Positions 14,135-26,231 of a stretch of 47,371 bases of DNA are shown here, piece by piece. The position numbers and the translations under genes are program-made. The notes beneath the pieces are model-generated. The model made no database searches and was not told where the DNA came from. It saw nothing but the letters and a program-made list of their open reading frames with translations. Position 1 is the first letter of the stretch. Every line of letters starts with the position of its first letter. Origin of the DNA: Candidatus Woesearchaeota archaeon (lineage in GTDB: Archaea > Nanobdellota > Nanobdellia > Pacearchaeales > GW2011-AR1); contig JAAZNJ010000004.1 of NCBI GenBank assembly GCA_012798335.1, positions 1-47,371 of the forward strand, read 5' to 3'.

Positions 14135-14224
14135 GGCTCTGTAGCTCAGTGTTAGAGCGCTGCTCTCATGAATAATTAGTGTTGAGAAAGGCAGAGGTCG
14201 GGAGTTAAATCCTCCTCAGAGCCA
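14135..14224 (+). tRNA. tRNA with CAT anticodon (elongator Met or Ile2) and an 18-nt intron at 14171-14188
   Basis: Acceptor stem GGCTCTG/CAGAGCC plus A73, D-arm GCTC/GAGC, anticodon stem CTGCT/GGCAG, loop CTCATG|intron|A, T-arm GGGAG-TTAAATC-CTCCT. Loop CTCA pairs with intron TGAG in a BHB-like central helix. Confidence 0.8.
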
Positions 14225-19115: not shown

Positions 19116-19361
19116 TCATTTAAGAGCAGTTGATGCTGGAGAAATGCAAATTATAGTATCCCCTCTTAAAAAAGTTAAACCAAGACTTCTCTTGATTTCA
19201 CCGTTCTGTATCTCTTTGACATTATCAACAACCAAGTTGATATGTATATCAAAGGCTAAAAGGGTACCAACAAATTGCTTATCTCCCTTAAGATAAACCA
19301 AAACTTCTTGGCCTTTTGAAAGATTCAATAAGTCCAAAGGTCTGTCAATACTACTAACCAT
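19116..19361 (-). CDS. Sm-like archaeal protein (LSm/SmAP)
   Basis: 81 aa. The Sm1/Sm2 pattern is ...VLVYLKGDKQFVGTLLAFDIHINLVVDNV...LGLTFLRGDTIICI. Confidence 0.8.
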   Translation of the reverse strand: MVSSIDRPLDLLNLSKGQEVLVYLKGDKQFVGTLLAFDIHINLVVDNVKEIQNGEIKRSLGLTFLRGDTIICISPASTALK

Positions 19362-19390: not shown

Positions 19391-19495
19391 AGTTTCGCAA
19401 TTTTAGTCTTAAAAAAATAAGGAAATAGAGTTCTATTAACTTATTGTTGGTAAAATCTGCTTTGAATGTCAATTTTTAAAAAGTTTAAATCAGGT

Positions 19496-19684
19496 TCATA
19501 AGTTTTTTGATATCCTTATCGCTACATGTGTATAAATTTGTGTCTTTTTCAAGTTCTTATGCCCCAATAATTGTTGTATATATTTTATATCTGAACCAAT
19601 TTTTAATAAGTGTGTTACAAAACTATGTCTTAATGTGTGAGGTGTCATGTTCTTCTTAATTTTGAACGAAATTCCTTGTTGCAT
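19496..19684 (-). pseudogene. Tyrosine recombinase (Xer/IntI-type integrase) C-terminal remnant, 62 codons
   Basis: [42 protein letters not shown] carries the HxxR, second His and catalytic Tyr boxes. A stop codon lies 2 codons upstream of the first Met, so the ~200+ N-terminal residues are absent. Confidence 0.75.
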
Positions 19685-19779
19685 ATTTTATAAAAAAAGA
19701 AAGTGCTTAATTAACAAGAATAAGCCAATTGATTGCAAACTTTTTCCTATTAAAGTTAAATTTTTGGGGGCGGGTTGCA

Positions 19780-19856
19780 CTCTCGCTTTGCTCGGGGCAA
19801 TTAACGAGAATTTAACAGTTCATGATTCGGCTCACCCTCACCCAAATTTTTCTGAT
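19780..19856 (+). repeat. Direct repeat A, left copy (77 nt; 4 mismatches to 25720-25796)
   Basis: ctctcgctttgctcggggcaattaacgagaatttaacagttcatgattcggctcaccctcacccaaatttttctgat aligns without gaps to the right copy. Confidence 0.9.
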
Positions 19857-19952
19857 TACTAATGAGGGGTTTCACAAATAAAAAATGTAAAGAAATATAA
19901 ACAAATACGATCTTTTTAATATAAGTAAATAATAACTATTTAAGGTATAAAT

Positions 19953-21029
19953 ATGCTTGATAAATTTATGAATAAAATTGTAAGAGGAGATTGTATTCAA
20001 GTCTTAAAAGAAATACCGGATAATTCAGTAGATTTGATTTTCGCAGACCCTCCTTACAATTTACAACTTCGTGGCGAACTTTGGCGACCAAACCAAACTA
20101 AAGTAGATGCTGTGAATGATGAATGGGATAAATTTAATAGTTTTGAAGATTATGATAAGTTTAGTCAAGAATGGCTTAAAGAATGTCTACGTGTTTTAAA
20201 AGAAAATGGAACTATTTGGGTTATCGGTTCTTATCACAATATTTTTAGAATTGGGAAAGTTATGCAAGATATAGGTTTTTGGATTTTAAATGACGTTTTG
20301 TGGATTAAAACTAACCCTATGCCTAATTTTAAGGGGACAAGATTTAATAATGCCCACGAAACTTTAATTTGGGCATCTAAAAATAAAGATTCAAGATATA
20401 CATTCCATTATAAAACTATGAAAGCATTTAATGATGATTTGCAATTAAGAAGTGATTGGTATATTCCCATTTGTAATGGTGGAGAAAGAATAAGAATAAA
20501 CGGAGAAAAAGCACACTCCACCCAAAAACCAGAAGCATTACTTTACAGAATTATAATTTCTACTTCAAATCCTAATGATATTGTGCTTGACCCTTTTATG
20601 GGAAGTGGAACAACAGGAGCAGTTGCTAAGAAATTAGGAAGAAACTTTATCGGAATTGAAAAAGAAGAATATTATATAAAGATAGCAAATGAAAGAATAG
20701 CTAATGTTAAACCTTATGCTCATCAAACTTTAGCTTATCCTCTTGAAGCTAAAAAACCTAAAGTCTCATTTGGAAATTTAATAGAAGCAGGTTTAATAAA
20801 ACCTGGAGAAAAGTTGTTCTCAAAAGACAAAAGACATAAAGCAGAAGTTTTGACAAATGCAACAATAGTTTTAAATAATATTTCTGGCTCAATTCATAGT
20901 GTTAGCGCACAGGCATTAGGCAAAACTTCTAATAATGGCTGGACATTTTGGTTCGTTGAGAGAGATAATAATTTAAAAAGTATAGACGATTTAAGAAAAG
21001 AATATATGGAAAAGTATATTACTTTATGA
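19953..21029 (+). CDS. N6-adenine DNA methyltransferase, beta class, CcrM/M.HinfI family (probable GANTC specificity)
   Basis: 358 aa, near-colinear with CcrM. Shared segments: DLIFADPPYNLQL, VDAV.D.WD.F.SF..YD.F, IWVIGSYHNIFR.G, GFWILND..W.K.NPMPNFKGTRF.NAHETLIWASK, H.TQKPEALLYRII, LDPF.GSGTTGA.AK.LGR.FIGIE, SGSIH. Confidence 0.9.
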   Translation: MLDKFMNKIVRGDCIQVLKEIPDNSVDLIFADPPYNLQLRGELWRPNQTKVDAVNDEWDKFNSFEDYDKFSQEWLKECLRVLKENGTIWVIGSYHNIFRIGKVMQDIGFWILNDVLWIKTNPMPNFKGTRFNNAHETLIWASKNKDSRYTFHYKTMKAFNDDLQLRSDWYIPICNGGERIRINGEKAHSTQKPEALLYRIIISTSNPNDIVLDPFMGSGTTGAVAKKLGRNFIGIEKEEYYIKIANERIANVKPYAHQTLAYPLEAKKPKVSFGNLIEAGLIKPGEKLFSKDKRHKAEVLTNATIVLNNISGSIHSVSAQALGKTSNNGWTFWFVERDNNLKSIDDLRKEYMEKYITL

Positions 21030-21033
21030 GGTG
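21028..21033 (+). promoter_or_regulatory. Shine-Dalgarno-like GAGGTG for the endonuclease gene, overlapping the methylase stop
   Basis: tGAGGTGttaatATG places the motif 5 nt upstream of the ATG at 21039. This suggests translational coupling of the M and R genes. Confidence 0.4.
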
Positions 21034-21038
21034 TTAAT

Positions 21039-21902
21039 ATGATAATGGACTTTGAACAATTCAAAAGCATTCTTAATAAAAAGATTTTTGAAGAATCAAA
21101 AGCTAAACTTATTGAAAATATAGCAAAATCTCCAAGTAGGTATATTGGGCTTTTCAGACCCACAAAACCCAAAGCCAAAATTTTACAAAATCTCTTACAA
21201 TCTCACGAAATTCGTTTTGGTGATGCTTTTGAAATTCTGATAGAAGAATATCTAAAGAAGTTTAGTTTCACCATACTTGAGAAAAAGTTCTCAACAACCA
21301 ATGAAGAGGAGTTAAACATAGACCAATGTTTTAAGAAAAATGGTAAGATATATTTTGTTGAGCAAAAAGTAAGAGATGATCACGATTCAACAAAGAAAAG
21401 AGGGCAAATACAAAATTTTGAAAAGAAACTTAATGAGATGATAAATAAACATGGTGAAAACAATCTTATAGGAATTTTTTACTTTATAGATTCTGAACTG
21501 AAAAAGAACAAGAACTATTATGATACCGAACTTAAAAGAATGTCAAAAGCGTATGGAGTTACTTTACATTTATTTTATGGTGAAGAACTTTTTACATTCT
21601 TGGGACATTCTGAAATTTGGAAAGAAATTTTGAAATATTTAGCTGATTGGAAAAAAGAAATTCCAGAATTGCCAGAAACCAACTTTGATTTAAATACACA
21701 AAACAGTTTTGAAGAAATTAAAGATTTAAACCCTGCTTGGTTTAGAAGTATATTTGATAATGATGAGGTTTTTAATGACATTATCTTAACAATCTTCCCA
21801 GAAAAGAAAACTTTAAAGTTGCTTTTTGAATACTTTAAAACAAAATCTTCTGAAAAGACAATCTATAAAACTCTAACTGAATCATTAAAAAACAGGATTT
21901 AA
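21039..21902 (+). CDS. Putative type II restriction endonuclease partner of the CcrM/HinfI-like methylase
   Basis: Starts 9 nt after the methylase stop. It has a PD-(D/E)xK-like signature NID-x12-VEQK. No other family was recognised. Confidence 0.55.
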   Translation: MIMDFEQFKSILNKKIFEESKAKLIENIAKSPSRYIGLFRPTKPKAKILQNLLQSHEIRFGDAFEILIEEYLKKFSFTILEKKFSTTNEEELNIDQCFKKNGKIYFVEQKVRDDHDSTKKRGQIQNFEKKLNEMINKHGENNLIGIFYFIDSELKKNKNYYDTELKRMSKAYGVTLHLFYGEELFTFLGHSEIWKEILKYLADWKKEIPELPETNFDLNTQNSFEEIKDLNPAWFRSIFDNDEVFNDIILTIFPEKKTLKLLFEYFKTKSSEKTIYKTLTESLKNRI

Positions 21903-21908
21903 GTAAAA

Positions 21909-22006
21909 CTCCCCTAAAAAAAGTAAAAAAAGATTGTCCCCCTCGATTCTTGTTCTTGATGTGTCGCATTCGCTCATTTGATAGAACGCCACTAAAAATT
22001 ACTTTG
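21909..22006 (+). repeat. Direct repeat B, left copy (98 nt, identical to 24620-24717)
   Basis: ctcccctaaaaaaagtaaaaaaagattgtccccctcgattcttgttcttgatgtgtcgcattcgctcatttgatagaacgccactaaaaattactttg is identical at both sites by eye. Confidence 0.9.
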
Positions 22007-22359
22007 CTGACGCAAGTTTCCAGAACTCCGCTTTGCTCGTAACTGGAAACGAACTTAACAGGAATTTAACTGTTCGCAGGGTCGCTTCGCCTAAAACACC
22101 AAGCGTTTTCCCCTGCTCTCCCAAATTCAAAATTTGTGGAATGCCCCAAAATTCCTCCGCTCTGAAAAATAAACTTCATTTAATCGCACATGTTCAACGA
22201 AATTCAGGGGGCTAACGAAGGGGGCAATTTTATTATTTAAAGGCGAGAAAACTATTTCCGAAAATCTTCCGGAAAAATCATCACAAAGTTTATATACTTT
22301 AATGTTTTATTAAGTAATATTCGTAAATTAACTAAAAAACTTTGAGGGCGCAAAACAAA

Positions 22360-22692
22360 ATGGCAAGTCAAGCATTAGAGCAAATCTTAGAATTTGCACC
22401 AATTTTTGGGCAGACACGAATGTATCGAACAATAGATAGATACACAAGCGGAACAACAAAATTGTATAGCTTCGATCCACCTGGATTAATGAATCAACAA
22501 CCATTTCAATTCGGATATGATTTACCAGGAACAAACACACAGTTTCATTTTCATGGACCTGATGCTGATCACTTAACTTATGGTAAACTGGTAGATTACG
22601 ATAGAAACACCTTGTTTGAAGAAAAAAATAGTTTCAACTTAGCAATGAATGACTTAAGATTTGATCAAGGCGGATTTAAAAAGTTCCCTTAA
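22360..22692 (+). CDS. Hypothetical protein (110 aa)
   Basis: The track ORF starts at a TTG at 22342; the first ATG is at 22360 (MASQALEQ...). No motif recognised. First gene of the block bracketed by repeat B. Confidence 0.4.
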   Translation: MASQALEQILEFAPIFGQTRMYRTIDRYTSGTTKLYSFDPPGLMNQQPFQFGYDLPGTNTQFHFHGPDADHLTYGKLVDYDRNTLFEEKNSFNLAMNDLRFDQGGFKKFP

Positions 22693-22729
22693 TTTTTTTA
22701 TTTCTTTTAAGATTATTTGAGGTAATAAA

Positions 22730-23011
22730 ATGAAAGAATTGGAAATAACGATGGTTAAAGATCTCATCAATGTTTATCAATCTTATTTTGAAAAAGGTCT
22801 TACAGACGAAGTAAAAAAAAACGCTAAAGAGATTGAAAGTAAATATCTTAATTCTTCTCCAATTGTCAGATCAGATTTAACAAACGCGAAAGGAAAATTA
22901 ACCTATTTTTACGCAGATATTCCACCAGGACCTATAAGCAAAATTGAAGCAAAAAAAATTGTCTTGAATCTTGAAAAATTAAAACATAAATTGGAAAATG
23001 ATAACTCTTGA
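22730..23011 (+). CDS. Hypothetical protein (93 aa)
   Basis: GAGGT lies 7 nt upstream of the ATG. Its 3' end overlaps the next ORF by 14 nt, which suggests an operon. Confidence 0.45.
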   Translation: MKELEITMVKDLINVYQSYFEKGLTDEVKKNAKEIESKYLNSSPIVRSDLTNAKGKLTYFYADIPPGPISKIEAKKIVLNLEKLKHKLENDNS

Positions 23012-24068
23012 TTCTATTTTGCTTGATGCTTCTTCTTTTGTTAGTTCTGAGTTTGGTTTTGATGTTGAGCAATCAAAATTAAAGCCTTATTCTCCGGAGA
23101 ATTGGCAAGAGTTTTGTCAAACTAATAATTTTGATATAAATAGTTCTGGAATTTATGTTCCTGCTTCTTATTCTGCATATGTTAGAACAGATAGTCTTTT
23201 TTTAACTTCTAATATTTTTCATGAATTTTATGGTCATGGTTTGTTTGTTGAACATTCTCAAATTGGGAAAAGATTAACTGAAATAATCCAAAATAATGGT
23301 GATGAAAAAAGTTTTATGTTTGATGAGATCAGTCCTCAAGAACAAACTTTTGGTATTGCAAAACACAATATTCACAATTATGAGGGTTTTGCTGTTTGGC
23401 TTGAAGCTTTGCTTTGCAATGAAACAGGTAATTCTAAAGTTTGGCAATTAAAAAGAGATAGATTGCCTGATGATTTTGTTTCATTGTTCGAATATTTTCA
23501 GGATGTTGAACAAAGATTTTCTCGTTTTGGCTTAATTTCTCAGATGGGTTTTCCTAAACACTATGATGATGATAAAGTTTTAGGTGTTGTAAGAAAATTA
23601 TATGGTTCTAATTTTAATAATGTTGATTTTGTTGTTATTTATGGTTCTCAGAAACCAGAAAGCGATATTGATTTATGCGTTGTTTCAAGTAATCCTTCAA
23701 CTCAATATTTTAACGGTTGGCTTGATATTGCAGAATTAAATAGAGAAGATTTTCAAAATCGAATAAATAATTTAGATATTGCTCTTACTGATGCAATGTT
23801 TTCAGGAAGATTAATATTTGGAGATGGAATTACTTTTCATCAATATAAACAAACTATTTTAGAAAAACCAATTTCACAAGAGATGATTGAATATAATAAA
23901 CGAAAATCGAAATTACAAAAAGAATATTTATCTAGTTATCGAGATAATGATAGAACGAAAAAATTGTGTTTATCTTATATTAATAGTTTTTCTCAAAATG
24001 CTGAACAACTAATTTTAGGAAATAAACCTCTAACTTTAAAAACTCTTCAACAACTTTATAAATGTTAA
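22998..24068 (+). CDS. Fusion protein: N-terminal unknown domain with an HEFYGH motif plus a C-terminal minimal nucleotidyltransferase (Pol-beta fold) domain
   Basis: VVIYGSQKPESDIDLCVV fits the GS-x(n)-DxD motif of NTP_transf_2-type nucleotidyltransferases. The N-terminal half has FHEFYGHGLF...YEGFAVWLE, which looks like metal-hydrolase motifs (HExxxH, not the classical HExxH). Confidence 0.55.
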   Translation: MITLDSILLDASSFVSSEFGFDVEQSKLKPYSPENWQEFCQTNNFDINSSGIYVPASYSAYVRTDSLFLTSNIFHEFYGHGLFVEHSQIGKRLTEIIQNNGDEKSFMFDEISPQEQTFGIAKHNIHNYEGFAVWLEALLCNETGNSKVWQLKRDRLPDDFVSLFEYFQDVEQRFSRFGLISQMGFPKHYDDDKVLGVVRKLYGSNFNNVDFVVIYGSQKPESDIDLCVVSSNPSTQYFNGWLDIAELNREDFQNRINNLDIALTDAMFSGRLIFGDGITFHQYKQTILEKPISQEMIEYNKRKSKLQKEYLSSYRDNDRTKKLCLSYINSFSQNAEQLILGNKPLTLKTLQQLYKC

Positions 24069-24083
24069 AGTGTTTACAAAAAT

Positions 24084-24545
24084 ATGGATAATAATAACTG
24101 TATATTTTGCAAAATCGTAAAAGGAGAAAGTCCTTGTCATAAAATTTGGGAAGATGAAAAACATCTTGCTTTTTTATCAATCTTTCCTAATACTGAAGGT
24201 TTTTCTGTGGTCATACCAAAAAAACATTTTTCTAGTTATGCTTTTGATCTGCCTGATGAAGTATTAAAAGATTTAGTAATTGCATCAAAAAAGGTCGCAA
24301 AATTAATAGATTCTAAACTAGAAGATGTTGGAAGAACAGGAATGATTTTTGAAGGTTTTGGTGTAGATCATGTCCATGCAAAACTTTTTCCAATGCACGG
24401 TACTTCTGATATGAAGAAATGGAAAGAAATTAAATCAAATGTCAACAAATTTTTTGAAAAATATGAGGGATACATTTCTTCACATGATTATAAAAGAGAA
24501 GATGATGAAAAGTTGAAGAAACTTGCAGAAAAAATAAGAAACTAA
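24084..24545 (+). CDS. HIT-family (histidine triad) nucleotide hydrolase/transferase
   Basis: CIFCKIVKGESPCHKIWEDEKHLAFLSIFPNTEGFSVVIPKKH is the typical HIT N-terminal half. The triad region reads VDHVHAKLFP, with the third His replaced by Lys as read. Confidence 0.75.
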   Translation: MDNNNCIFCKIVKGESPCHKIWEDEKHLAFLSIFPNTEGFSVVIPKKHFSSYAFDLPDEVLKDLVIASKKVAKLIDSKLEDVGRTGMIFEGFGVDHVHAKLFPMHGTSDMKKWKEIKSNVNKFFEKYEGYISSHDYKREDDEKLKKLAEKIRN

Positions 24546-24619
24546 TTCTTTTAGAAAAAGAACCAAAATAAAAGCCCCCTCTAAAATCTTCTTTTTAAAA
24601 AAAAGAAACAAAAAAGCCC

Positions 24620-24717
24620 CTCCCCTAAAAAAAGTAAAAAAAGATTGTCCCCCTCGATTCTTGTTCTTGATGTGTCGCATTCGCTCATTTGATAGAACGC
24701 CACTAAAAATTACTTTG
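24620..24717 (+). repeat. Direct repeat B, right copy
   Basis: Identical 98 nt to 21909-22006. Confidence 0.9.
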
Positions 24718-24774
24718 ATTTCTTCCAGTGGAACATTGCATTAAAAATTAATTCCTCCAAGGATTCGTGGGCAA

Positions 24775-24860
24775 CTAACAGCGATTAAGAAGAAAATCCT
24801 TGCAGGATTTTGCCCAAATTTTCACTTCGTGGAAACTTCTCTTGATTGCATATGTTAGGC
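24775..24860 (+). other. attC-like imperfect palindrome ending in a GTTAGGC core
   Basis: Layout: CTAAC-a-GCGATTAAGAAG-[AAAATCCT tgc AGGATTTT + 24 nt]-CTTCTCTTGATTGC-atat-GTTAGGC. The outer CTAAC/GTTAG arms and the inner 12-14 nt arms pair, with 1-2 unpaired bases. Confidence 0.4.
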
Positions 24861-24923
24861 GTAATTTTCGGGAGCGCAACTTTTTAAGAACTTTTATAAA
24901 CATTTAGAACAATTACTATAAAT

Positions 24924-25670
24924 ATGGGGGTATACAATAAACCACTTTACTATGAAATTGCATTTAGCTTTGTTGATGCAAAAAAACAAGTAGACTTGTT
25001 TGAGAAATTTATTGAAAAATATAGCAAGATAAAAGTAAAAAGAGTTTTGGATATCGCTTGTGGACCAAGTTTGCAGTTAAGGGAACTCGCAAAAAGAGAT
25101 TATGAAGTTATTGGTTTAGATTTGAGTCTACCAATGTTAAAATACCTGCAAGAAAAAGCAAAAGAGGAAGGTGTTAGAATAGATACTGTTAAAGCAAACA
25201 TGACAAATTTTAAACTAAAAAAGAAAGTTGATTTTGCTTTTATAATGATGGGGTCATTTAGATTCAAAAATAATGAAGATCTTTTAAAACATCTTGATTG
25301 TGTTTCAAATTCGCTCAAGAATGGAAGTTTGTATCTTATTGAAAATATGGAATTAGATTGGCTAAGTTTCAAACCTCAAAGCTGGATCATGAAAAGAGAT
25401 GGAATTGAAATCAAGACAACTTACAAACTAAAACAAAAAGATCCAATTTTTCAAACATCCGAAGAAATTATTAGTTTAGAAGTGAATGATAATGGCAAAA
25501 AATTAAAATTCGTTGAAAAAAGAATTATGAAACATATTTATCTTCAAGAATTTCTGGCTCTTGTTAAATTAAATAATAAATTTGAATTTCTTGGTCAGTT
25601 TGAACGCTTCAAATTCAAAAAATTAAAGAAAGGATGTATGGATAATATTATTCTTTTGCGTAAAAAGTAA
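24924..25670 (+). CDS. Class I SAM-dependent methyltransferase
   Basis: Motif I is VLDIACGPS. An acidic residue after beta-2 appears in VIGLDLS. Length is 248 aa. Substrate unknown. Confidence 0.75.
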   Translation: MGVYNKPLYYEIAFSFVDAKKQVDLFEKFIEKYSKIKVKRVLDIACGPSLQLRELAKRDYEVIGLDLSLPMLKYLQEKAKEEGVRIDTVKANMTNFKLKKKVDFAFIMMGSFRFKNNEDLLKHLDCVSNSLKNGSLYLIENMELDWLSFKPQSWIMKRDGIEIKTTYKLKQKDPIFQTSEEIISLEVNDNGKKLKFVEKRIMKHIYLQEFLALVKLNNKFEFLGQFERFKFKKLKKGCMDNIILLRKK

Positions 25671-25719
25671 TTGTGATGCGCTCCCGAAAACTTCTCCGCT
25701 ACGCTACGACAACTCTGAG

Positions 25720-25796
25720 CTCTCGCTTCGCTCGGGGCAACTAACAAGAATTTAACAGTTCATGATTCGGCTCATCCTCACCCAAATTTTTCTGAT
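25720..25796 (+). repeat. Direct repeat A, right copy
   Basis: 77 nt with 4 mismatches to 19780-19856. Confidence 0.9.
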
Positions 25797-25837
25797 ATAA
25801 TAATGGAGATGATGGCTAACAAAACCTGAAATAGAAA

Positions 25838-25868: not shown

Positions 25869-26231
25869 ATGAAGAAAGGAAGAAAAATTACAGGTGGAAA
25901 ATACATAAAGGCTAGAAAGAAAAAACTAAGAGAAAAAGTCGGACAAAAACGAAAAGTAAAATTAGGTGAAGAAAAAAGAAAAGTAAAAAAAGTAAGTGGT
26001 GGAAATCTAAAAGTAATGATGTATTCTGGGAAATATGTTAATGTTCAAGAAAAAGGAAAATCAAAAAAGGTTGAAATAAAAAATGTAATAGAAACACCCT
26101 CTGATAAATTCTTAGCAAGGCAGAATATTATTACAAAAGGGACAATTCTTTTAACAGAGTTAGGAAAAGTAAAAGTAACAAACAGGCCTTCTCAAACAGG
26201 AATAATTAACGGAATACTCATAAAAGAATAA
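25869..26231 (+). CDS. rps8e: 30S ribosomal protein S8e (eS8)
   Basis: GRKITGGKY..ARKKK, GGN.KV, and NIITKGTILLTELGKVKVTNRPSQTGIINGILI fit the eS8 pattern. Confidence 0.8.
   Translation: MKKGRKITGGKYIKARKKKLREKVGQKRKVKLGEEKRKVKKVSGGNLKVMMYSGKYVNVQEKGKSKKVEIKNVIETPSDKFLARQNIITKGTILLTELGKVKVTNRPSQTGIINGILIKE

Follow-up and report, generated by a model that had tools for sequence, protein, structure and literature searches.

A perfect 98-bp repeat in a decayed integron-like cassette array of a woesearchaeal genome, probably a cassette-end module copied within the array

Background

The closest described relatives of the locus studied here are integron cassette arrays with attC sites, among them the sedentary chromosomal integrons, whose attC sites are homogeneous, as is the case for the VCRs (Vibrio cholerae repeats) of Vibrio (PMC4889954, PMC11023631). 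Archaeal integrons were first reported only in 2022, nearly all of them as arrays without integrase. Ghaly et al. (2022, Sci Adv, PMC9668308) described attC arrays in archaeal metagenome-assembled genomes (MAGs), Nanoarchaeota/DPANN included. According to the accessible text of that article, archaeal IntIs were called only through the IntI-specific domain, so that arrays such as those described below would be scored as clusters of attC sites lacking integron integrases (CALINs). We have studied a stretch of 47,371 nt from Candidatus Woesearchaeota archaeon (assembly GCA_012798335.1, contig JAAZNJ010000004.1), which we will call the window. It contains an inserted island (positions 19430-25827, + strand) which, judging from its sites, is a decayed integron-like cassette array. 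Inside the island there is a 98-nt direct repeat without any mismatch, the 98-mer.

The array shares many features with known integrons. Its cassettes are co-oriented and each is closed by an imperfect palindrome with R'' (RYYYAAC), R' (GTTRRRY), L''/L', an unpaired spacer and a variable terminal structure. The sites resemble each other within a lineage, and intact relatives have a recombinase gene oriented divergently from the array, together with an attI-like site. The cargo is also typical: restriction-modification (R-M) genes and methyltransferases, with a toxin-antitoxin pair (MazEF) in one relative (G047). However, the archaeal cassettes bear an additional conserved module of about 100-330 nt on the 5' side of R'', outside the attC hairpin; the recombinase lacks the IntI-specific domain; and the array of the window has decayed to one intact attC. 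The arrays studied here also differ from those of Ghaly et al., as far as the accessible text goes, by their position beside a distinct clade of XerA-like recombinases without IntI domain. Neither the upstream module nor perfect repeats within an array are described in that text, and the terms 'homologous recombination' and 'identical attC' are absent from it.

A second comparison is with the IS3 copies in the array of Vibrio cholerae (PMC11023631). There too, repeats serve general recombination which rearranges cassettes, and integrase loss is common. The difference is that those repeats are insertion sequences and an inversion was seen experimentally, whereas here the repeat is direct, non-coding and 98 bp long, and we infer recombination. 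Archaeal integron arrays as such are already known; with respect to the literature found, the new features would be the long module upstream of attC, its duplication inside an array, and a XerA-like integrase without IntI domain.

Results and discussion

The 98-bp repeat in the window

Copy a is found at positions 21909-22006 and copy b at 24620-24717, both on the + strand. They are 100% identical over exactly 98 nt and their starts are 2711 bp apart. Copy a begins 7 nt after the stop (21900-21902) of a restriction enzyme gene, and copy b begins 75 nt after the stop (24543-24545) of a gene for a HIT protein. A first-pass annotation of the window had reported the identity and both distances, and all of them are correct. 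Outside the edges of the repeat the identity drops to 41-52% over the flanking 30 nt and to 45-53% over the flanking 60 nt. Such a perfect repeat cannot have a chance origin in DNA with 26% G+C. The annotation also mentioned a less conserved outer repeat of 77 nt, which we find at 19780-19856 and 25720-25796 with 95% identity.

As the annotation had proposed, the 98-mer was searched in its own genome and in related MAGs. Its genome (G000; 68 contigs, 609,790 bp, 87.6% complete) has two copies, both of them in the window, which is the entire contig C52. The window has a G+C content of about 26% and contains genes for TFIIB, an Sm protein and ribosomal protein S8e, which mark it as archaeal. Other genomes contain a family of related sequences, described in the next section; the labels of those MAGs (Woesearchaeota, Pacearchaeota or Nanobdellota) place the genome among the DPANN archaea.

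A perfect repeat could be an artefact of assembly, if a repeat had been collapsed or mis-threaded, if strains had been joined into a chimera, or if the assembler had placed a free cassette circle in an empty site. This MAG is fragmented, cassette arrays are rich in repeats and often break assemblies, and several copies of the module in other MAGs lie at contig ends. On the other hand, 32 pairs of contig ends in this genome have overlaps of exactly 141 bp, the pattern left by a de Bruijn assembly whose final k was 141. Since 98 bp is shorter than k, k-mers derived from reads must have extended across each copy and its two flanks. Furthermore, the flanks would be paired the other way round if a circle and an empty site had been assembled together. 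For these two reasons we treat the assembly as sound. Both copies also lie in coherent contexts which have relatives elsewhere. The evidence, which is indirect, supports as correctly assembled the order R-M genes, 98-mer, alpha attC and HIT gene, 98-mer, beta attC (alpha and beta being the sites that follow copies a and b), and an artefact appears very unlikely. The end overlaps also mean that the assembly graph of this genome could be partly re-threaded. Contig C23 and the window have a stretch of 234 bp in common, near the right end of the window.

A conserved module at the end of cassettes

In DPANN archaea, integron-type cassettes have at their 3' end a conserved non-coding module, placed between the last gene and the attC, and the 98-mer is its central part. 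The module has up to about 330 nt. Its members are found in MAGs of Woesearchaeota, Pacearchaeota and Nanobdellota and in metagenome contigs, behind unrelated genes. All copies whose flanks are long enough show one and the same layout: after the gene stop come one or two A/T hairpins with oligo-T/oligo-A runs, then GCCCCTCCCC, an A-run, the core GATTGTCCCCCTCGATTCTTGTTCTTGATGTATCGCATTCGCTCATTTGATAGAACGCCACTAAAAATTACTCTG, a spacer hairpin, the CTTTCGCTTCGCTC box and finally the attC, from R'' to R'.

We have searched 400 genomes of the order, and exact-pattern scans added 6 MAG loci and 10 metagenome contigs. Near-full-length copies of the 98-mer, with 95-96% identity and the same left edge, are found in two contigs of G330, which belongs to another genus. 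The core (approximately positions 25-95), running into the tail found behind copy a (the alpha tail) up to R''/L'', is present in G333, G080, G161, G289, G393 and G047 with 71-79% identity, and shorter matches to the core occur in further genomes of the order. Fourteen genomes of the same genus gave no match to the module. About 14 distinct close copies are known: the next element is a complete attC in 9, a truncated attC in 4 and a contig end in 2. The closest group, which we call gamma-type, is 91-98% identical across unrelated samples, and two contigs of a single sample (Ga0307928) have 97% identity.

The first-pass annotation linked the 98-mer to cassette boundaries and allowed that it could instead be a common dispersed repeat unconnected to them. 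The link is borne out, as the module ends cassettes; the family is widespread and always tied to cassette 3' ends. A dispersed repeat or a miniature inverted-repeat transposable element was rejected for this sequence: its genome has two copies, terminal inverted repeats are absent, and the order gene stop, module, attC is constant in the loci inspected.

The same annotation proposed that an element of about 2.7 kb had been inserted with duplication of its site. A target-site or att duplication produced by a self-contained mobile element would agree with the presence of direct repeats bracketing a gene block and with their perfect identity. However, target-site duplications of transposable elements usually have 2-15 bp, and 98 bp is far beyond any of them. 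Relatives of the 98-mer pre-exist singly, behind unrelated genes, at 20 other loci or more. The bracketed block encodes no recombinase or transposase, and its ends are out of register with the R' sites of the attCs: the repeat has a period of 2711 bp, the cassette one of 2662 bp. This origin is hardly credible. The possibility that the copies are the attL and attR of an integrative element was also rejected; the block has no integrase, and the 98-mer elsewhere is the 3' end of unrelated cassettes, not an empty target.

Within the module a core of about 45 nt is conserved in an alignment of 22 sequences, even in copies which have only 60-70% identity overall. By eye, its centre TCGCATTCGCTCA is similar to the box TCGCTTCGCTCA that precedes each R'' and to ATCTCGCTT, which is repeated in the attI-like site; this suggests a protein-binding motif. 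The spacer hairpin on the 5' side of R'' has stems that covary among relatives (GTCGCCAG/CTGGCGAC, GTTTTCGG/CCGAAAAC and TTTTCCCA/TGGGAAAA). In the window it occupies positions 22016-22050 (+), just 5' of R'', with stem GTTTCCAG / CTGGAAAC and a box-like loop AACTCCGCTTTGCTCGTAA. This hairpin is outside the canonical attC, and its loop keeps a box-like ..CGCTTTGCTCG.. in the window and in G047, G080, G161, G289 and G333.

We tentatively consider that the 98-mer might be a protein-bound accessory arm of the recombination site in a XerA-derived integron system of DPANN. The integrase of this system would lack the IntI-specific domain, which bacterial IntIs require for the recognition of attC hairpins. 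The core, with its likeness to the box before R'' and to the attI repeats, would help to recruit or orient the enzyme, and the repeat would record an exchange through the module and not at R'. In a different explanation the 98-mer or its core is itself a site-specific recombination site, or an accessory binding site, of a XerA-like recombinase, and a crossover inside it would have brought in the four-gene unit. The core is kept in sequence without a conserved fold, as a protein-binding site would be; the likeness of TCGCATTCGCTCA to TCGCTTCGCTCA and ATCTCGCTT points in the same direction; and the order R-M-98-alpha...HIT-98-beta is the expected outcome of a crossover in the module. Nevertheless the 98-mer contains no inverted core-type arms around a short spacer, and the canonical crossover-type sites (GTTRRRY) sit downstream, at cassette boundaries. 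A site-specific crossover neither needs nor creates 98 bp of identity, and the motif resemblance was judged by eye. We find a crossover of this kind quite improbable. The suggestion of the first-pass annotation that one recombination site was used again stands only in part: the crossover-type R' sites are close by, but downstream of the 98-mer and not within it.

Origin of the perfect identity

The surroundings of the two copies are not alike. Copy b is in a context typical of the family, and at least 75 nt on its left, with the A/T hairpins and AAGCCC, match other genomes. These hairpins are oligo-T/oligo-A 'terminator-like' units (24546-24619, +), and in G330 and L046-L063 the module is preceded by an almost identical sequence. 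On the right of copy b we find the beta tail (24718-24771, +), which contains the mini-hairpin TTCCAgTGGAA and, after it, ...ATTGCATTAAAAATTAATTCCTCC... A homolog of this tail is present in G036, and it is akin to one of the common tails (...GGAACATTGCAT in the beta tail, ...GGGGACGTTGCACT in the other).

Copy a is a module without its A/T hairpins. The R-M cassette that precedes it has homologs in G257 and G212 with 78-86% protein identity, where the genes are followed by a tail ...AAAACTCCC and then by A/T hairpins. The homology of the window to these cassettes continues past the stop through ...AAAACTCCC and about 5 nt into the 98-mer (to ~21913). The left edge of copy a thus lies in the CTCCC that is shared by the R-M tail and the module, and these first nucleotides of the copy are also native to the R-M cassette. 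On its right side copy a has the alpha tail. Elsewhere this tail is found on divergent cores, which are 59-71% identical to the 98-mer over the full span in the copies measured and give local BLAST matches of 71-89%. The motif ACTTTG at the right edge is native to alpha-type tails (G080, G333) and to the beta-type tail of G036, whereas the close gamma-type copies all have ACTCT[GC]. From these comparisons copy a is a chimera, a gamma-type module placed between the R-M cassette's own short tail and an alpha-type tail. The identity tract ends on CTCCC at the left and on ACTTTG at the right, motifs which both contexts would carry anyway.

A gamma-type module on an alpha tail, the perfect identity and its abrupt stop where the shared sequence stops are what recent homology-driven copying would produce. 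We consider it fairly likely that the identity is due to such copying between two cassette-end modules within the array. The repeat is not the footprint of an insertion. A recent event had also been deduced in the first-pass annotation. It agrees with the identity of 100% in the window, compared with 91% (G330) and 66% (JBDRJY) for same-genome pairs elsewhere and 98% for the nearest external copy.

The two cassettes could also have been captured independently, by attC recombination, from a donor pool with a near-invariant module, without any event inside the array. The high identity of the gamma-type group across unrelated samples (91-98%), the nearest external copy at 98% and the Ga0307928 contigs at 97% would be in keeping with such a pool. 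Cassettes do move between families, as it is apparent from the S-adenosylmethionine (SAM)-methyltransferase cassette of the window, which is 86% identical to that of G038. But the same-genome pairs known elsewhere reach only 91% and 66%, both window copies have ACTTTG where every other gamma-type copy has ACTCT[GC], and copy a is chimeric, with an identity that ends abruptly on both sides. Independent capture appears rather unlikely to us.

Copying within the array could have followed two routes. In the first one, which we find somewhat the better of the two, gene conversion from copy b would have replaced a pre-existing divergent module behind the R-M pair; it would require no earlier chimeras. 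In the second one, which has only a little less weight, a single homologous crossover in the module would have inserted, into an R-M-module-beta array, a circle made up of the alpha attC, the four genes, the hairpins and the module. By either route the identity tract would end where the shared sequence ends. Neither an alpha nor a beta tail was found behind the R-M homologs of G257 and G212, so that the two routes could not be told apart.

The pair would also have consequences for the four genes between its copies. A RadA-type homologous deletion of 2711 bp would leave R-M-98-beta attC and would join ...GGATTTAAGTAAAA-98-ATTTCTTCCAG. Excision through the repeat would join, in circular or tandem form, HIT-hairpins-98-CTGACGCAAG. 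The first-pass annotation had called the pair a ready substrate for deletion, and our deductions support it. With an alpha attC that is unable to fold and a dead cis integrase, the four genes could be excised easily only through the 98-mers; a related intact enzyme is available in trans on contig C46. The repeat, the module family and its position, the attC structures and the junction sequences are read directly from the DNA; from their comparison we infer the copying mechanism, its direction and the ability to mediate such a deletion. A precedent is the chromosomal integron array of Vibrio, in which both the loss of the integrase and homologous recombination of repeats are on record (PMC11023631). 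To detect sister populations, or the junctions of a deletion or a circle, JGI metagenome contigs were screened with the exact right end specific of the window, and gave 0 matches.

Several points weigh against copying within the array. The conversion tract, the deletion junction and the circle are hypothetical. The gamma-type group is so conserved (91-98%) that one donor pool could yield identical cassettes. A gamma-type module with an alpha tail, or with a beta tail, was seen in no other genome. No close homolog of the four-gene unit was found; the best one has 35% protein identity, so its native 3' end cannot be read. In Vibrio assays cassette shuffling was integrase-dependent and RecA-dependent recombination between VCRs was ruled out (PMC12614218). 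That work had been considered as a precedent for homologous recombination between attC regions and was discarded, as it argues the opposite for its own assays. Finally, the 98-mer itself has no recognizable fold or coding capacity: its single-sequence z scores are +0.4 and +0.8 with respect to shuffled sequences, RNAalifold gives about -1 kcal/mol for 25 copies, Rfam at E<=1 has no relevant match (only one chance match elsewhere in the island), and it contains no conserved open reading frame.

Other roles of the module were tried and rejected. A structured RNA or a DNA hairpin does not agree with a sequence that folds no better than shuffled ones on either strand. A small open reading frame on the reverse strand has frames which differ between copies, with 28 codons in the window and 10 in G047 (by eye). 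An outer stem of GATTGTCCCCCTCG with the CGAAGGGGGCAATT motif after R' scores high only in copy a and G080, and is within the range of shuffled sequences (null maximum 12.5). A promoter for the next cassette was looked for by eye; the 98-mer contains no convincing archaeal TATA/BRE (TATA box and B recognition element), and the cassettes have TATA-like boxes of their own.

attC sites and cassette boundaries

We collected eight attC candidates and folded them on the bottom strand. Six of them, with z between -3.6 and -5.3, fold as an attC: R'' pairs with R' and, beyond a short unpaired spacer, L'' pairs with L' in a bulged stem that leads to a variable terminal structure. The consensus of ten aligned short sites has 28 pairs, 11 of them with compensatory double changes. 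The covariance model built from these 10 sequences is narrow (effective number 1.5) and misses long-loop sites such as that of C46, so its counts are lower bounds. On independent sites it gives 38-62 bits, among them 38 bits for C35, another contig of the same genome, and 51-61 bits beside recombinase genes in four other genomes.

The island has four attC-derived sites within 6 kb, one intact and three decayed, whereas an array or CALIN is operationally defined by two or more attC sites near each other. The intact one is the beta attC (24772-24860, +), with R'' AACTAAC at 24773-24779 and R' GTTAGGC at 24854-24860. Its R and L arms pair, and it scores 87.6 bits on the attC model, a value to be read with the fact that the site was in the training set. 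The alpha attC (22051-22198, +) has R'' ACTTAAC at 22053-22059, L'' AGGAATTTAAC and R' GTTCAAC at 22192-22198. It pairs poorly (z -0.7), its L arms cannot pair and the model does not match it. Its 3' half, CTTCATTTAATCGCACAT-GTTCAAC, is that of a different attC type, for in G080, where an alpha-type site is complete, L' is GTTAAATTCC and R' is GTTCTAT. The alpha attC is a hybrid and probably defective. The other two sites, R77a (19780-19864, +) and R77b (25720-25805, +), include the outer 77-nt repeat and are 93-95% identical. They are attC 5' halves only, without L' and R'. R77a has the box CTCTCGCTTTGCTCGGGG, R'' AATTAAC, L'' GAGAATTTAAC and CCCAAATTTTTC, and is missed by the model.

The crossover points of the cassettes (R') are about 190 and 140 bp downstream of copies a and b. 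Cassette 2 is the one that contains the four genes; from R' to R' (22192-22198 to 24854-24860; 22193-24854) it has the 2662 bp mentioned above, out of register with the 2711-bp repeat unit. In G038 the counterpart of the SAM-methyltransferase cassette starts at GTTAGGC and is followed by a 138-nt element which goes from GCCTAAC to GTTAGGC, two motifs that fit the integron core-site consensus R'' = RYYYAAC and R' = GTTRRRY.

The sequence immediately after R' (..TTCAGGGGGCTAACGAAGGGGGCAATTTT; window 22199-22235) recurs after alpha-type or truncated attCs in G080 (L043) and L051, before different genes. Other cassettes open with a different conserved motif (CCCCCGACCACCCGCCCC). From these recurrences it follows that cassette 5' ends also bear shared non-coding modules. 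The cassettes seem to carry their own TATA-like promoters, such as TTTATATA, found by eye upstream of the first gene of cassette 2.

The island and its genes

In the closest relative (G004, 92-94% identity) the island is absent and its flanks abut. These are the Sm gene (19116-19361, - strand) and the S8e gene (25869-26231, + strand), which adjoin in most genomes of the genus. It follows that 19430-25827 is an insertion. The whole island is flanked by two copies of the 8-bp GAAATAGA, at 19422-19429 and 25828-25835, and the empty site of G004 has a single GAAACAGA. At its left end we find a conserved element end GTTCTATTAACTTATTGTTGG (19430-19450, +), which opens with an R'-like GTTCTAT. The same end, (G)TTCTRTTAACTTATTGTWGG, is present in G038 and G047 about 55-65 bp past the integrase stop, and similarity ceases exactly there. 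The 8-bp flanking repeat and this conserved end, distal to the integrase, indicate that the integron-like element itself seems to have been inserted as a unit.

The first cassette contains a GANTC-type R-M pair, placed before copy a. The type II N6/N4 DNA methyltransferase (19953-21029, +) has a RAMA domain (PF01555, 240 bits; PF18755; MTase_II, 584 bits). The type II restriction endonuclease (21039-21902, +) belongs to the HpyAIV family (NF045832, 255 bits with a cut-off of 160; REase_II, 326 bits).

The cargo of cassette 2 (22360-24545, +) consists of four tightly packed genes, all on the + strand: a 110-aa gene (22360-22692), a 93-aa gene (22730-23011), a 356-aa fusion with a Pol-beta-type nucleotidyltransferase domain (22998-24068) and the HIT protein (24084-24545). 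No known defence system matched this cargo, and PADLOC found no match for the conserved set of three genes formed by the fusion and the two small genes. Homologs of the fusion protein are present in 34 of the 401 genomes searched (G000 included), with 26-35% identity. The same genome has on C35:1-2661 a complete cassette bracketed by two attCs, with paralogs of three of the four genes: a 377-aa nucleotidyltransferase fusion and proteins of 103 and 92 aa, in a different gene order and without the HIT gene. This cassette lacks the 98-mer module, which is thus optional.

The third cassette encodes a SAM-dependent methyltransferase (24924-25670, +). The segment 24853-25700 of the window has 86% nucleotide identity with G038:C3:3646-4494, compared with about 68% for housekeeping genes. 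In G038, which belongs to another family, the counterpart is the first cassette, beside an intact integrase and an attI-like site. The comparison indicates a recent horizontal transfer of this cassette between families. A 14-bp perfect inverted repeat (TTTTCGGGAGCGCA / TGCGCTCCCGAAAA, at 24865-24878 and 25677-25690) frames the methyltransferase gene within its cassette, and the cassette of G038 has a comparable but imperfect pair.

Outside the island, at positions 14135-14224 of the window, there is a tRNA according to Rfam (54.5 bits) which is absent from the ARAGORN output; with its 90 nt it probably contains an intron.

The XerA-like recombinase and the attI-like site

The window has no integrase of the IntI type, and its attI site has been deleted. 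What is left is a C-terminal remnant of 62 aa of a tyrosine recombinase (19496-19684, - strand; PF00589, 61.6 bits), which belongs to an array-associated XerA-like clade. It has 81% identity with residues 212-258 of the enzymes of C46 and G038, which are intact; the N-terminal part of the remnant is gone. The enzyme of C46 is the only intact tyrosine recombinase found in this genome. That of G038 is intact, has 276 aa and is divergently oriented. The two are 85% identical to each other, despite coming from genomes of different families.

The intact enzymes align end to end with the archaeal XerA structures 4A8E and 5HXY. With VchIntIA (2A3V) the alignment is limited to two segments, chain residues 47-178 and 238-309, which are separated by no more than about 15 residues; the approximately 45 residues that are missing imply that the IntI-specific additional domain is absent. 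NF040815 is the best family match (217 bits, cut-off 220), and TIGR02249 gives 192 bits (cut-off 265).

The recombinases of 60 relatives form two groups, a distinct clade with 60-86% identity and ordinary XerA-like enzymes with 35-45%. Ordinary XerA-like genes are present in most of the 60 relatives. The distinct clade has a patchy distribution in 6 genomes of five families, of which at least four also hold an ordinary XerA-like gene. The array-associated loci are G000:C46:5540-6349 (L017), L016:4561-5391 (G038:C3), L075 (G042:C17) and L078 (G047:C9). In all four enzymes with over 80% identity an attI-like segment, AAAATCTCGCTT...TTTATCTCGCTTAATAGT|GTTRRRY, is found about 90 bp upstream on the opposite strand, whereas none of 24 ordinary XerA loci has it. 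The junctions in the intact relatives are GTTAGGC, GTTGTTC, GTTATAT and GTTAGTC. Matches to the attC model within 1.5 kb were obtained for four members of the clade and for only one ordinary XerA locus.

In comparison with the archaeal XerA/dif system (PDB 4A8E, 5HXY), the array-associated recombinase is similar along its whole length, but it forms a separate clade (35-45% identity to ordinary XerA) and lies beside attI-like and attC sites, not beside dif. Within the searchable literature we have found no work which links XerA-type enzymes to attC arrays. A XerA-like integrase without IntI domain beside an attI-like site and attC arrays would not have been described in the literature found.

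Conclusions

Taken alone, the 98-bp repeat is a modest feature, and most of it has an explanation. Its locus indicates that cassettes of DPANN archaea carry a long conserved non-coding module before the attC, shared across lineages behind unrelated genes. These modules may be copied or exchanged inside an array. Such copying would give rise to perfect repeats and might allow the gain and loss of multi-gene cassettes independently of the recombinase, even after the integrase has decayed. If it is true that the XerA-like enzyme recombines attC, this would bear on the origin of IntI from Xer-type recombinases and on whether the extra domain is strictly needed.

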